In this document: positions 33,001 to 42,000 of the stretch, one piece after another
How positions within the stretch are numbered: the stretch's first letter is position 1
Layout of the letters: each line of letters starts with the position of its first letter
Assembly (NCBI GenBank): GCA_012837735.1
Contig: DUQP01000036.1
Span: forward strand, 7,152-71,151
Direction: 5' to 3'
Source of the DNA: Bacillota bacterium
GTDB taxonomy: Bacteria > Bacillota > Sulfobacillia > UBA3575 > DUQP01
DNA length: 64,000 bases
Position numbers: made by a program

Positions 33001-36000
33001 TGCCGATCTCCCCAAGTCCCCCTAGTGTTACAATTTTTAGTTTATCTCCTAGCAACTTTAAATTTTCACCCCCTTTTCCTTTGTGACGAATCACAAATAG
33101 TTTTTCTACCACCAAAAGGACGCAAACCAACGCTGCGCCCTAAAAATCCAGCTCCAAAAGAAACCCCTGCCTCCAGAAACCGTTCCGGAGCGCAGGGACC
33201 GGTAGACGTTATTATTATACATAAATGTGCACAAAAAGTAAAATTCGGGCGGCATCCTGCTGCCGCCCTTTCTCTTTTAAATCAGCCCTTGTGCGCGCAT
33301 AGCTTCTTTTAGTACAGCCATCTGCGTTTCCGTTGCCTCCACCAGCGGTGGCCGGAAACCGCCACAGGGGAAGCCGACATAACGCAGAGAAGTTTTAATC
33401 GGGATGGGGTTAGTGGTGCAGAAAATTGCCCTGTTGATTGGGAATACCTCCGCATGAATTGCCGCCGCGGTACGAACGTCACCAGCCGTGAAGGCTTGGA
33501 TCATTGCCATCATGCGATCGGCAATCAAGTGACCGGATACGCTCACCACGCCATGTCCTCCGACCGCCAAAATCGGCAGGGTGAGGCTATCATCGCCACT
33601 CAGCACATAGAAATCCTCCGGAACAGAGCGAATGATTTCTGAAACCTGGTCCAGGTCGCCACTGGCTTCCTTTAGCGCCACAATGTTGTCGATTTCCGCC
33701 AAACGCTTTACCGTTTCGGGTAACAGATTGGAAGCGGTCCGCCCGGGCACATTATATAACATCACTGGTAGGCTGGTCGCTTCCGCCACTGCCTTGAAGT
33801 GCTGATACATACCTTCCTGTGGGGGCTTGTTGTAAGCCGGTACGACCAGCAGAACTCCATCCACTCCCACCTTTTCCGCCTCTTTAGTGAGAGCGATGCT
33901 GGCAGCGGTGTCGTTGCTGCCCGTGCCGCCCCAAACCGGTACCCGCGCTCCAACTGCCGCCACCACCGCTGCCATCAAGCGCAGCTTTTCTTCCACGGTC
34001 AGTGTCACCGCTTCCCCCGTTGAACCACTAACCAACAGGCCATCAGAGCCCAAATCGACCAACCGCCGCGCCAGTTCCTGCGCGCGCTGATAATCGACCT
34101 GCAGGTTTTCATCGAACGGTGTCACCATGGCAGTGATAACCCTGCTCATCTCTTTCACAGGCCACACCCCCAAATTATAATCCGTTCCCTCCCAGATCGA
34201 AAGCCCCGTGCAAAGCTCGCACAGCCGCTACCATCTCATCCTGCTTGACCAGGCAGGAAATCGTCACGTGCGAATCGGTGGAATGCCTGATCTGCACACC
34301 GGCGGCGTGTAAAGCGGTGACAACGCGCGCCATCACCCCGGGCACCCCCCGCATGCCAGAGCCCACCACAGACACTTTGGCACAATTTCTCTCCGCCTGA
34401 TAGGCCAATTCCAAATCAGCTAAAACATCCTGTGCTTTTCCCATCAGCTCTTCTTTGATAATAAAAATCTTTACCTCGGGTAAGACGGTAATCATATCAA
34501 GACTGATCCCAACCTCAGCCAGATTTTGGAATAGCCGCACTTCCGTATCATCCGCTACCGGCGCAGGCGTGAACACCTTTAGCTGCGCCATCTCTGGGAT
34601 CTGCGTCACCCCGGTCACTACCCGCTCATGACCCTGCTGACCCCAGATATCCTGGCTTTGGTAATTGTATGTGATCATGGTACCGGGCTGATCTGAGGTA
34701 GTGGACCGGATTTGCAACGGTATGTTGCGGCGCATGGCGATCTCCACCGCCCGGGGGTGAATCACTTTCGCTCCCTCATGGGCCATTTGGCAAATTTCAT
34801 CGTAAGTAATCACAGGTAGCGTACGTGCCTCCGGGACAATGCGCGGGTCGGCAGTCTTGATTCCTTCCACGTCCGTGAAAATGTCGATCCGTTCCGCTGC
34901 CAAAGCGACACCTAGGGCGGCGGCGGTTGTGTCGCTGCCACCCCTGCCCAACGTGGTAATCTCGCCAGTCTCGGCCGCGCCTTGGAATCCCGCCACGATT
35001 ACAATTCGGCCTGCACGCAAGTGTTTCAAGATCGATTCCGGCTCCACCCGTTTGATGGTCGCATTTGTGAAACAATCGTCCGTCAAGATGCCGGCCTGGG
35101 CGCCAGTCAATACCGTCGCATCGTATCCGTGTGCTTTCAATGTATTGGCCATCACGACAGCCGAGATTATCTCACCGCAGGACACCAGCAGATCCATCTC
35201 GCGCGGATTCGGATCCTGACAGCCCGATTGCGCAATCTTGATGAACGTGTCCGTGGCATACGGGTCACCGGCCCGTCCCATGGCAGAGACCACTACCACC
35301 GGGCTGAAACCCTCTTGCACAGCTTTTATTACATGGCCGACCGCCTGTTCCCGTAACTCAGGCGTGGCAACGGATGTACCGCCAAATTTTTGAATCAAAA
35401 TACGCATTCTCTTCTCCTCCCCTAGCACCATCAAGCCGGCAAGAGACCTTTCGCCAACATGTATTCCGCGATCTGGATGGCGTTTGTGGCCGCCCCTTTG
35501 CGTAGATTATCAGCTACAACCCACATCAGCAGACCGTTCGGCCGATCCAGGTCCTCCCTGATTCTTCCCACGCACACATCATCTGACCCTGCGCAATTAA
35601 TTGCCAGCGGATACTGATTGCCACTGGGGTCATCAAGCACCTTCACGCCCGCTTCCATCAGGATCTGCCTGGCCTGGGAAGCCGTCACTTTTTCTTCCGT
35701 CTCGATCCAAATTGATTCCGAGTGCCCATAGAGCACTGGTACCCGCACAGTAGTGGCTGCGATTTCAATGTGCTCATCACCCATGATTTTTCTTGTTTCT
35801 CGCACCATCTTCATTTCTTCCCCAGAATAGCCATCAGCACCAATGGTATCGATATGGGGGAGAACGTTGAAGGCAATTTGGTGTGGATACACAACCGGCT
35901 CCACTGCTTGGCCCTCTAAAATCGCCCGGCTTTGACTGATCAATTCCTGCAGGGCCAAAAGGCCGCTGCCGGAAACGGCCTGATATGTGGACACGACGAT

Positions 36001-39000: not shown

Positions 39001-42000
39001 ACAACCCCAGCCCAGGGGTACCGGCCACCGCCCGGGCTTCGGCGGAGGCCCCTTTCCTTACCATTCATCAATGCCCTTTTCCTGGCAAGTACTGATGGCA
39101 TCCGCACCTCTACCTCACTAACGTGAGTAGTGAGGTAACCCTATCCCTATTTTTTTACATCATAGCATATGGACGGAAACAGTGTCAACGAAGTAGGAGC
39201 GGCCACCGGGCCGCTCCTTCCAGTTTACCTGCGCACGTCGTGGGTCTCCACGTCCCGGGCCCCGTTACCGCGGAATATATCCGCGGCCTGGCTAACCCGT
39301 CGCTCATCTGCCTTCACCAAGGCGATGATCCCGCCGGAGCGTAATCGTTGTTCATATTCCCGCCCGCGTTCTTCCGGAATGCCCCAGTCCAACAAACCCC
39401 CGGCCACACCGCCCGTAACGGCGCCACTCAATACACCTGCGATTGGGCCCGCCGCCACGATTGGGCCAATGCCAGGAATAGCCAGGGCACCAGCTCCAGC
39501 CAGCAGGCCCGCCAATCCACCGATGGCACCACCCCAACTCACACCAGTGCCCAGTTGTTCGCCAGTACCCATGGTGGTATCTATGCCACCACTGCCACTT
39601 TCCCGCCCGCTTTCATCACGGGCAATGATGGAGATCTCGTTCTGCCTGAAACCCCGGCTACGCAATTCCTGCACAGCTTGTTCCGCATCATCCCGCGATG
39701 TGAAGACACCGATTACCGATTTTTCCACTTAACCAACCTCCCCTGGCGTTCTCACGTTTATTGTTGCCTAATTACCACCATCATCATTCAAGATTTGCTC
39801 AGGGAGGCAGAGACATTATTCTACTTTTACGATCATCAGGTCGGGACCAATCCGCACGACTGCTTTCCATGGTATCCCTATTTGCCGGCGATGACCAATG
39901 TTAAGCAAACCTTTGTCAAGCGGCACCAAAATTTCCGCGATCTCCCCTGTCTGAGGATCAATGGTCAAATCCGAGTCCCCCACGCGGCCCAAACGCGTGG
40001 CGTCGCCCACATTGACAATTTCCTTACCGCGCATTTCGCTCAACCGCAAATACATCACCACCCCATTCAACGGTAATCCTGGCGGTCAAAAAACGGGTAG
40101 ATAATCGCCACCAATAATGCTATCCCAGCCAGTGGTTCCACCTGAAAGCCAAACGGTAAATGCAAGCGGGCCGGGAGCTCGATCTGCAAAAAACTGACCA
40201 AAAGCACCAATGAAACATAAATCCCGCCGGCCGTGGCGACTAAATCCCGCACAGCACGTGATATCGGTGAAGGTTGCGGAACAACCGGTAAATCGCTCTC
40301 TTGACGCACAGACAGGTTGGCAGCGCGCCTGTGCACGGAAAGCACCGAGAGCGCCGCCAGAATGAAGATGCCGATCAAGATCCCCGCCATCACCCCACCC
40401 CTCCTTCCCCTTACCCCAGGATTATGCGGGTCAGGAGGGATTTTGCGCAAAAAAAATTGGGGGTTTCACCCCCACAAGCTTTCAACCCGTGTGCCCAAAA
40501 CCGCCCTCGCCACGTTCCGTTTCGGCCAGCTCTTCCACTTGGACCAAATCCGCTCTGCCCACCCTGGCAAACACCATTTGGGCGATCCGGTCTCCCCTGC
40601 GGATGGTGACAGGTGCCTGGCCGAGGTTGATCATGATCACTTGGATCATACCCCGAAAATCGGCATCGATCGTGCCGGGACTGTTCAGCAAAGTCAATCC
40701 GGTACGCAATGCCAATCCACTGCGGGGTCGCAGTTGCGCCTCCCAGCCGGGGGGAATCTCCATAAAAAGTCCAGTGGGCACCAAAGCAGTCTCTCCCGGC
40801 TGCACAACCATTTCCTGCGTCACAGCAGCAGGGATGTCCAATCCTGCGCTCCCAGCCGTCATATAACGGGGCAAAGGGAGATCCCTGGCCGCTGTATTCC
40901 GTCTAATGCGCACCGTCAATTCCATTTTTCTCCCCCGTTCCGACCACTGTTTGCAGGTACCAATGCCCATCGGCAGCCAGTTCCGGACCCACCAGAGCAA
41001 TTGTCGGTGGTTTAGCAAACAGTCTCTTGGCCAATTTCTGTACTCCTTCTGGGGTGGTGGCAGAGAGTTTTTGGATCACCTCGGCCGGTGGTATCACTTT
41101 CCCCATTAACAGCTCCATCCGCCCCAGTCTGCTCATCCGCGCACCAGTGTTTTCCAAATTCATCATCAATGTTGCCTTGAGCTGCGCCACAGCCCGCTCG
41201 TGTTCCTCTGTCGTGATGCCGTCTTGCTTGATGTTCGCCAATTCTGTCCGGACCAGATCCACGACCGCTTTCACATTGCCCGGGTTCATGCCCGCATAGA
41301 CGGTCAATAAGCCACAATCTCGGCATGACTGCAAGTAGGAATACACAGAATAAGCGAGACCGCGATCCTCTCGTATACCCTGAAAAAGGCGGGAACTGCT
41401 GCCGCCACCAAGCAAATTATTTAACACCTGCAGATGATATATATCCTGGTCATCATGTCCCAGACCGGTCACGCCCAGACAAATATGGGCCTGTTCAATC
41501 GCTCTCGTGATGACGGCCAGCCGTGATCCGGCTTGGGCAGGGCTCCCGATTGCTGTTTTGCCGCCCGTTGGCAGTGCACTGAAGACATCTGACACGATCT
41601 GAACCAACTCATCGTGTACCAGGTTGCCGGCGGCAGCGATCACAATATTGTCTGCCGTGTAGTGGTTTGCGAAGAACCGCTGCAAATCACTGCGACTGAA
41701 GGTTTGTACCGTCTGCTCCGAACCCAGCACCGATCTGCCCAGCGGATGCCCATGCCAAATAGTAGCGTTGAACAGATCGTGGACCAAATCTTCCGGCGTG
41801 TCTTCATACATACGGATCTCTTCTATGATAACACCTTTTTCCCGTTCTATATCATCCTCATCAAAGCGCGATGCCAGCAACATATCCGCCAGCAATTCCA
41901 AACCAGTAATCATGTATTCATCCAAAATCCGCACATAAAAACAGGTATACTCTTTGCCGGTGAAGGCATTTAATTGCCCACCTACTGATTCGATCTGTTC

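Follow-up and report, generated by a model that had tools for sequence, protein, structure and literature searches.

A lysine riboswitch in the dapB leader and a sigma-K-type promoter in the dapB–dpaA gap: predicted nested control of a dapB–dpaA–dpaB–asd–dapG–dapA gene string in a Bacillota genome

The dipicolinate synthase genes of Bacillus subtilis stand in the cluster spoVFA–spoVFB–asd–dapG–dapA, described as the 'dap/dpa operon' (Chen et al. 1993, Daniel & Errington 1993, cited in PMC6878958), and spoVFA/B are members of the sigma-K regulon, for which the B. subtilis promoter consensus is KCACM / GCATANNNTA (PMC3416734). None of the riboswitch-regulated operons listed in a published survey begins with dapB or contains dpaA/dpaB (PMC5584792). 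Here we analyze a stretch of 64,000 nucleotides (hereafter, the window) from a Bacillota bacterium of the GTDB lineage Sulfobacillia (assembly GCA_012837735.1, contig DUQP01000036.1, positions 7,152 to 71,151), the minus strand of which carries the genes dapB, dpaA, dpaB, asd, dapG and dapA as one string. In the arrangement that we consider probable, a sigma-A promoter and a lysine OFF riboswitch acting by transcription termination head this string, and a promoter of the sigma-K type is nested in the gap between dapB and dpaA. The locus would then stack a metabolite sensor and a developmental promoter at the branch point between dipicolinate (DPA) and diaminopimelate (DAP), and for annotation the string would be read as two nested transcription units rather than as one riboswitch-controlled operon.

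The lysine riboswitch of the dapB leader

The only Rfam match in the window is the Lysine riboswitch, RF00168, at 39120–38935 (positions are those of the window, and within the string are given in the direction of transcription), with 119.1 bits at a gathering score of 30, an E value of 3e-31 and coverage of model positions 1–182 of 182. All five helices (P1–P5) are present, P1 being formed by 39117–39110 and 38945–38938, and a covariance model of our own gives the aptamer 169.8 bits. Ahead of it lies a sigma-A-type promoter consisting of a −35 element TTGACA (39188–39183), an 18-nt spacer and an extended −10 element TGcTATGAT (TG at 39167–39166, TATGAT at 39164–39159), the best among only seven promoter-like sites found in 10 kb by consensus scanning, from which transcription is predicted to start at ~39152. 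A first-pass annotation, made from the sequence alone, had proposed this promoter, an L-box aptamer with its conserved blocks, a terminator with a run of seven T upstream of dapB, six same-strand genes joined by short gaps or overlaps, and a strong terminator after dapA; every one of these was recovered where it had been placed (Table 1), the aptamer over the full length of the Rfam model.

A few bases before the −35 element and after a YflT-domain gene, positions 39190–39215 (minus strand) can form a 9-bp GC hairpin (GGAGCGGCC-cggt-GGCCGCUCC) with no clear U-run, which may be a terminator shielding the leader from upstream transcription. The home-made L-box model also gave weak matches at 26519–26564 (minus strand) of the window and at 6143–6271 of survey locus L029 (12–13 bits, E ~0.1), which were regarded as noise.

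For comparison, 80 species-level dpaA loci were collected with a DpaA profile and mapped by tblastn with the window proteins. The order dapB–dpaA–dpaB–asd–dapG–dapA–rnj is found in 37 of them and is the usual one for Clostridia-type spore-formers (Peptococcaceae, Desulfotomaculia, Moorellaceae, Heliobacterium, Syntrophomonadaceae, Limnochordales and unclassified Bacillota), and Paenibacillus, Bacillus and other Bacilli carry the same cluster without dapB. All 37 dapB-linked loci were searched with Rfam, and 81 sources (977 kb) with the covariance model built from the matches; these searches superseded a strict regular expression for the L-box blocks, which missed two of the six aptamers. Apart from the window, the riboswitch is present in five of the 37 dapB-linked loci, those of Moorella thermoacetica, Moorellaceae AZ2, Heliobacterium mobile, Peptococcaceae BICA1-8 and Ca. 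Acetocimmeria pyornia, and in all six it stands directly 5′ of dapB and at no other place in the cluster. Since the six leaders have in common the promoter type (TTGACA-type and at equal distance in all five other leaders), a GAGGUAG/CUAUCUC P1 and an upstream CCUCAYC segment, the riboswitch appears to have come into these dapB leaders by common descent, with frequent loss. The spacer between terminator and dapB is ~250 nt in Ca. Acetocimmeria pyornia (L031 4790–5040), compared with ~45–90 nt in the other five leaders.

Across the six dapB-linked aptamers, 95.5% of cells are paired, as against 35–48% in slid controls, and compensatory changes on both sides occur at 29 of the 48 pairs, a value reached in none of 500 shuffles. 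Because the fold has been kept through so many compensatory changes, the covariation indicates that the aptamer is under selection across these leaders and is not a relic. In an alignment read by eye, complementary segments of the L2 and L3 loops, candidates for the loop–loop tertiary contact of this family, covary in some lineages (GGGAAG:CUUCCC in AZ2, GGGCC:GGCCC in Moorella, GGAGU:ACUCU in BICA1-8); in the window only GGC:GCC can be made out.

On the 3′ side of the aptamer, a stem followed by a U-run is present in all six leaders. In the window, this terminator and a predicted antiterminator hairpin have 38911–38898 (14 nt) in common and, by folding, are mutually exclusive; the antiterminator is the structure of minimum free energy (MFE) when the transcript stops short of the 3′ arm of the terminator, and its 5′ arm overlaps 38937–38919, the partner strand of a predicted extension of P1. 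This extension appears in the MFE structures of all six leaders when P1 is enforced. In the window, the segment at ~39141–39121 then pairs with 38937–38919, thereby lengthening P1 and covering the 5′ arm of the antiterminator, with the terminator left intact. An upstream hairpin equivalent to that of the window (Table 1) is likewise predicted in all six leaders. The long-range extension amounts to −17.2 kcal/mol, compared with −8.6 to −11.4 kcal/mol with the corresponding segments of the other leaders. As, among five leaders so compared, such cross-locus controls are exceeded only in the window and the two Moorellaceae, and not in BICA1-8 or Acetocimmeria, we regard the extension as a predicted feature of the window leader and do not take it as established for the group.

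The leader is thus predicted to work as a coherent lysine OFF switch by transcription termination. In growing cells with low lysine, the upstream segment would be held in the local hairpin with the 5′ strand of P1, the antiterminator (38925–38898) would form, and polymerase would proceed into dapB. At high lysine, the aptamer would close P1 together with its long-range extension, so that the 5′ arm of the antiterminator would be sequestered, the terminator (38911–38881) would form, and the vegetative transcript would be cut short. The dapB start lies 47 nt past the terminator, with its ribosome-binding site (RBS) outside the switch. A scan of a species-representative genome collection with DpaA gave no close relative, the nearest other DpaA proteins being ~53% identical, and for this reason fine-scale covariation is not available for the expression platform or for the anti-RBS helix considered below.

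The sigma-K-type promoter and the predicted reach of the riboswitch transcript

The gap between dapB and dpaA, which the first-pass annotation had thought might restore independent control, does contain a promoter motif of the sigma-K (mother-cell) type, with a transcript start predicted at ~38040. In its loose form (AC, 15–18 nt, CATAnnnT) the motif occurs in all 37 dapB-linked gaps and in 74 of the 80 dpaA loci, where dinucleotide shuffles give 0.034 per locus; its strict form, with a KCACM −35 element, occurs in 48 of the 80, as against 0.002 per locus. Each of the dapB–dpaA gaps has (a)aGCACC, ~17 nt and CATATAnT, starting 5–25 nt past the dapB stop where the gaps are short, and alignment on the −10 element places the same motif ahead of dpaA in Bacilli, including Bacillus and Paenibacillus. 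The window motif agrees with the loose form and departs from the strict consensus twice, at the last −35 base (T, not A/C) and at the base after the −10 element (G, not A). From this conservation, the DPA synthase almost certainly keeps an independent mother-cell promoter, and it is expected to be lysine-independent, as in B. subtilis.

Late in sporulation, a mother-cell sigma factor would start at this promoter and yield a dpaAB–asd–dapG–dapA transcript without dapB and without lysine input, by which aspartate flux would be directed to dipicolinate and not to diaminopimelate/lysine. DapB and DpaAB compete for the product of DapA, so that it is physiologically sensible for a promoter to stand after dapB, where it raises DpaAB together with Asd, aspartokinase and DapA and leaves DapB unaffected. 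Lysine would then set both the entry into the DAP/lysine branch, at DapB, and the supply of shared enzymes during vegetative growth, and the mother cell would re-use asd–dapG–dapA together with dpaAB, without dapB, for making dipicolinate.

At its 5′ end the predicted sigma-K transcript would carry a GC-rich hairpin (38045–37998), which was rejected as an intrinsic terminator or a repeated element, being without a U-tract and unique in the window; it may act as a 5′-end stabiliser or a processing site. Past the sigma-K-type −10 element, dpaA 5′ untranslated regions often open with a lineage-specific hairpin (L012 at ~5935–5985; also L019, L021, L022, L025 and L028), for instance a tandem GTACAGGTGTACTA repeat in Moorella and GGATAGT...ACTATCC in Desulfitobacteriia-type loci, which parallel the hairpin of the window and may provide 5′-end protection. 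A terminator-like site with a T-run directly before the sigma-K-type −35 element was noted in 19 of 36 loci without dapB (including L024, L030, L034 and L047), compared with 4 of the 37 dapB-linked loci.

From dapB to dapA, the junctions measure 106 nt, a 4-nt overlap, 31 nt, 23 nt and at most 25 nt. The string has no strong terminator before 33268: inside it are only four weak terminator matches in coding regions (5–9 pairs, with 3 G-C pairs each and poor T tails), none of them at a gene junction, and neither in the window nor in the other five riboswitch loci does the dapB–dpaA gap contain a terminator-like site, such as is found in two of the 37 dapB-linked loci. Nor did scans of the window detect a promoter of the sigma-A-like or extended −10 kind from dapB to asd (38093–36447); as internal promoters anywhere from dapB to dapA, only weak matches (3/6 in the −35 element) inside dapG and dapA came into question, and these were discarded. 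Given the absence of internal terminators and sigma-A promoters, transcription from the riboswitch promoter is by default expected to read through into the whole string, and polymerase, meeting no terminator after dapB, would go on through dpaAB into asd–dapG–dapA.

The dpaB–asd gap is 11–102 nt long (median 41) in loci with the riboswitch and 37–228 nt (median 97) in those without it (one-sided Mann–Whitney p = 0.0026). When the final 150 nt of dpaB and the gap are scanned together, none of the six riboswitch loci has a sigma-A-like match, compared with 14 of 24 others, a weak contrast in that eight of the 14 matches fall at one conserved coding position of dpaB and some chance matches are expected. 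The sequences suggest that, in the riboswitch lineages, growing cells depend on the riboswitch promoter for their Asd, aspartokinase and DapA. The recurrent dpaB motif (TTTACA, 17 nt, GATAAT) stands ~137–146 nt before the dpaB stop in L009, L013, L015, L016, L017, L020, L041 and L068, all without the riboswitch, and the window scores nothing there; it may be codon-driven or an internal asd promoter.

Table 1 Features of the string and its leader, in order of transcription
Feature	Position	Strand	Description
Sigma-A-type leader promoter	39159–39188	−	11/12 consensus positions, TG extension
Upstream hairpin (predicted)	39110–39138	−	UUACCUCACUA (39138–39128) with P1 5′ strand UAGUGAGGUAG (39120–39110); fold −14.1 kcal/mol, z −2.8
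Lysine riboswitch (L-box) aptamer	38935–39120	−	RF00168 at full length, own covariance model, covariation across six orthologous leaders
Antiterminator hairpin (predicted)	38898–38925	−	GUACCC.UUGGC ... GCCGA.GG.GUAC; fold −12.3 kcal/mol, z −2.9
Leader intrinsic terminator	38881–38911	−	AGCCGACGGAG-UAC-CUUCGUGGGCU, then U7 (38887–38881); stem 38911–38887, −14.3 kcal/mol, z −3.7
dapB, 4-hydroxy-tetrahydrodipicolinate reductase	38093–38833	−	TIGR00036 230 bits (cutoff 122); TTG start, RBS AAGGGGAU
Anti-RBS strand (candidate)	38061–38080	−	UCUGUCACUGGC with 37991–37979 (including the GUG start); CCCU 38064–38061 with GGGG of the RBS; MFE
Sigma-K-type (mother-cell) promoter	38047–38077	−	−35 GTCAC (38077–38073), 18 nt, −10 CATATAAT (38054–38047)
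GC-rich hairpin, 5′ end of predicted sigma-K transcript	37998–38045	−	19 bp, directly before dpaA RBS; −27.7 kcal/mol, z −3.1; unique in window
dpaA (spoVFA), dipicolinate synthase subunit A	37063–37986	−	NF006162 316 bits (cutoff 261); GTG start, RBS GGGGGGAG (37998–37991)
dpaB (spoVFB), dipicolinate synthase subunit B	36479–37066	−	NF006161 304 bits (cutoff 156); TTG start; 195 aa in public gene calls
asd, aspartate-semialdehyde dehydrogenase	35431–36447	−	NF011456 454 bits
Monofunctional aspartokinase, dapG position	34175–35407	−	NF006068 580 bits (cutoff 474); ATG at 35407
dapA, 4-hydroxy-tetrahydrodipicolinate synthase	33277–34173	−	TIGR00674 352 bits; start at 34173, 34158 or 34149
End terminator	33232–33268	−	GGGCGGCA-GCAGGA-UGCCGCCC and T-rich tail; stem 33268–33247, −18.4 kcal/mol, z −3.5

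Alternative readings

Among the alternatives, the one that survives best, although we hold it to be unlikely, is that the riboswitch governs dapB alone, that the RNA ends or is processed at 38045–37998, and that dpaAB are transcribed only from the sigma-K-type promoter and asd–dapG–dapA from an unrecognised vegetative promoter in dpaB or dpaA. DapB, as the first DAP/lysine-specific enzyme past the dipicolinate branch point, would be a logical sole target, and the gap has its conserved sigma-K-type promoter. The strong hairpin that follows dapB at once also seems to favor an early end of the RNA, but it lacks a U-tract, and the gap contains nothing resembling a terminator. The asd–dapG–dapA genes of B. 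subtilis are said to be expressed vegetatively and independently of spoVF; in the window, however, 38093–36447 offers no sigma-A-like or extended −10 promoter that could take this part, and the space between dpaB and asd is both short and systematically shorter in riboswitch loci than in others.

The sigma-K promoter region might in addition double as an RNA element. As the candidate anti-RBS strand precedes the predicted sigma-K start, it would be present in read-through transcripts only, in which it is predicted (MFE) to pair with the dpaA start codon and part of the Shine–Dalgarno sequence, enclosing the 19-bp hairpin. In the window, opening the RBS and start is computed to cost 4.5 kcal/mol in the sigma-K transcript and 14.2 kcal/mol in the read-through transcript, as compared with 9.9 ± 2.5 kcal/mol with a shuffled upstream segment; the corresponding means over the 37 dapB-linked loci are 6.8 (short), 12.2 (long) and 9.5 (shuffled) kcal/mol (p = 5e-5). 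When the own promoter segment is set against foreign ones, the cost is 12.7 versus 9.9 kcal/mol across the dapB-linked loci (p = 1e-4) and 18.6 versus 12.1 ± 3.5 kcal/mol in the window, where none of 14 foreign segments reaches the value of the own one. The effect is absent from 36 loci without an upstream dapB (8.2 versus 7.9, p = 0.67), and no occlusion is predicted for those two dapB-linked loci whose gap contains a terminator. Roughly one third of the dapB-linked loci are without the signal, the loci are not phylogenetically independent, and −35 regions resembling CACCUCC are inherently complementary to the Shine–Dalgarno sequence, all of which weakens the idea of occlusion. It is thus with more doubt than conviction that we suggest that the read-through RNA would carry dpaAB silently to asd–dapG–dapA and that the sigma-K RNA, with its stabilising 5′ hairpin, would be the one that is translated. 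Such translational insulation, dependent on promoter choice, of a sporulation enzyme lodged within a housekeeping operon would have evolved in lineages where no terminator precedes the promoter and, if true, would provide a clean natural example of promoter-dependent translational control.

It is very improbable that the six genes form one lysine-attenuated operon in which lysine would also limit dipicolinate synthase and spore DPA. The first-pass annotation had entertained such a single unit, and one half of the proposal holds: the genes lie on one strand, are closely spaced or overlap, and have nothing resembling a terminator at any junction before 33268, so that read-through is expected by default. 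The other half, lysine control of dipicolinate synthase, is not supported, as the conserved sigma-K-type promoter located past the riboswitch terminator would give lysine-independent transcription when DPA is made, and in the read-through RNA itself the RBS and start of dpaA are predicted to be occluded. Hardly credible, finally, is an aptamer that has become a decaying or repurposed relic, unresponsive to lysine or acting on translation, for although the element is lost from most related lineages (32 of the 37 dapB-linked loci are without it), that of the window scores about four times the Rfam threshold with its helices complete, covaries among six lineages whose DpaA (the sole protein compared) is ~45–50% identical to that of the window, is followed by a canonical terminator with a U-run in all six, and leaves the dapB RBS well outside the switch.

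Several points weigh against the arrangement favored here, the riboswitch at the head of the string with the sigma-K-type promoter nested in the gap. Lysine binding, termination and read-through are all predicted. In equilibrium folding with P1 blocked, the terminator still forms and no thermodynamic ON state is obtained; as the terminator wins at equilibrium either way, the switch has to be kinetic, as in other riboswitches. The contrasts in gap length and in promoter matches come from six riboswitch loci, including a related pair (Moorella). Second copies of the string genes are absent from the 64-kb window, but further copies of asd, dapA or aspartokinase beyond it are possible, as are promoters unlike the sigma-A consensus. 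The hairpin at 38045–37998 could also pause transcription or, as a processing site, uncouple dapB from the downstream genes. With these points taken into account, lysine is still expected to attenuate vegetative dapB and, by read-through, probably asd–dapG–dapA as well.

Gene neighborhood and comparison with known systems

Gene identities were assigned with NCBIfam models at curated cutoffs, which all six genes of the string clear. DpaA falls slightly under the cutoff of the older model TIGR02853 (306 versus 320), and the Pfam domain DpaA_N is present on a protein identical to the window DpaA; the name dapG for the aspartokinase is based on synteny with B. subtilis. The TTG start of dpaB overlaps the dpaA stop by 4 nt (TTGA), which suggests translational coupling of the two subunits. 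On the 5′ side the string is flanked by a YflT-domain gene, a PRC-barrel (ymxH-like) gene, dut and an M16 peptidase gene, and on the 3′ side by genes for RNase J and a Clp-protease-like protein, so that the neighborhood is that of the B. subtilis spoVF–asd–dapG–dapA cluster. The end terminator (33268–33232) also reads as a terminator on the plus strand. The RNase J gene has a promoter-like site of its own (TTTACT, 17 nt, TATAAT; 33242–33214, minus strand) overlapping the tail of the dapA terminator, and a leader of ~80 nt with GC-rich complementary stretches ahead of the open reading frame (33130–33242, minus strand). A distant match of the amino-acid-kinase fold to the aspartokinase query at 63172–63588 (minus strand; tblastn, 25% identity over 160 aa) does not represent another aspartokinase.

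Each taken by itself, riboswitch and gene cluster are familiar, the one an ordinary member of RF00168 and the other the classical spoVF–asd–dapG–dapA unit. Less familiar is a riboswitch on a dapB located directly upstream of a sigma-K promoter. A search of one literature library returned no paper linking a lysine riboswitch with dpaA/spoVF or with the Moorella or Heliobacterium loci, and the layout, present in long-available genomes (Moorella thermoacetica, Heliobacterium), may already be tabulated, for instance in regulon databases. These two are cultivable organisms with the same arrangement.

The five relatives carrying the riboswitch share with the window the L-box, dapB, the sigma-K-type promoter and dpaA–dpaB–asd–dapG–dapA, and differ from it in the sequences of their expression platforms and in DpaA, which is only 41–48% identical to that of the window. 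Compared with the L-box of B. subtilis lysC, the window leader has the same five-helix aptamer with conserved core, sigma-A promoter, terminator/antiterminator arrangement and OFF logic on a lysine-pathway gene, whereas the gene directly controlled is dapB, heading a cluster that includes the sporulation genes dpaAB. The window leader also has an extra upstream segment, for which alternative pairing is predicted with the 5′ strand of P1 or, over a long range, with the segment after P1, a feature described here for this leader. With the spoVF cluster of B. subtilis, the window shares five genes in the same order followed by those for RNase J and a Clp-protease-like protein, the M16 peptidase and PRC-barrel (ymxH-like) genes upstream, and the sigma-K-type promoter before dpaA. 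The first-pass annotation had set the locus against the mother-cell control of spoVF in B. subtilis, a contrast that mostly disappears now that a sigma-K-type motif is seen ahead of dpaA in both. Unlike the B. subtilis cluster, the window has a dpaB–asd gap of 31 nt with no recognisable vegetative promoter, and, unlike the Bacilli-type spoVF loci, which are without dapB, the window and the 37 Clostridia-type loci have dapB directly upstream, in the window with no terminator between. The actual difference from B. subtilis is therefore the placement of dapB and its riboswitch directly upstream of the classical spoVF–asd–dapG–dapA cluster.

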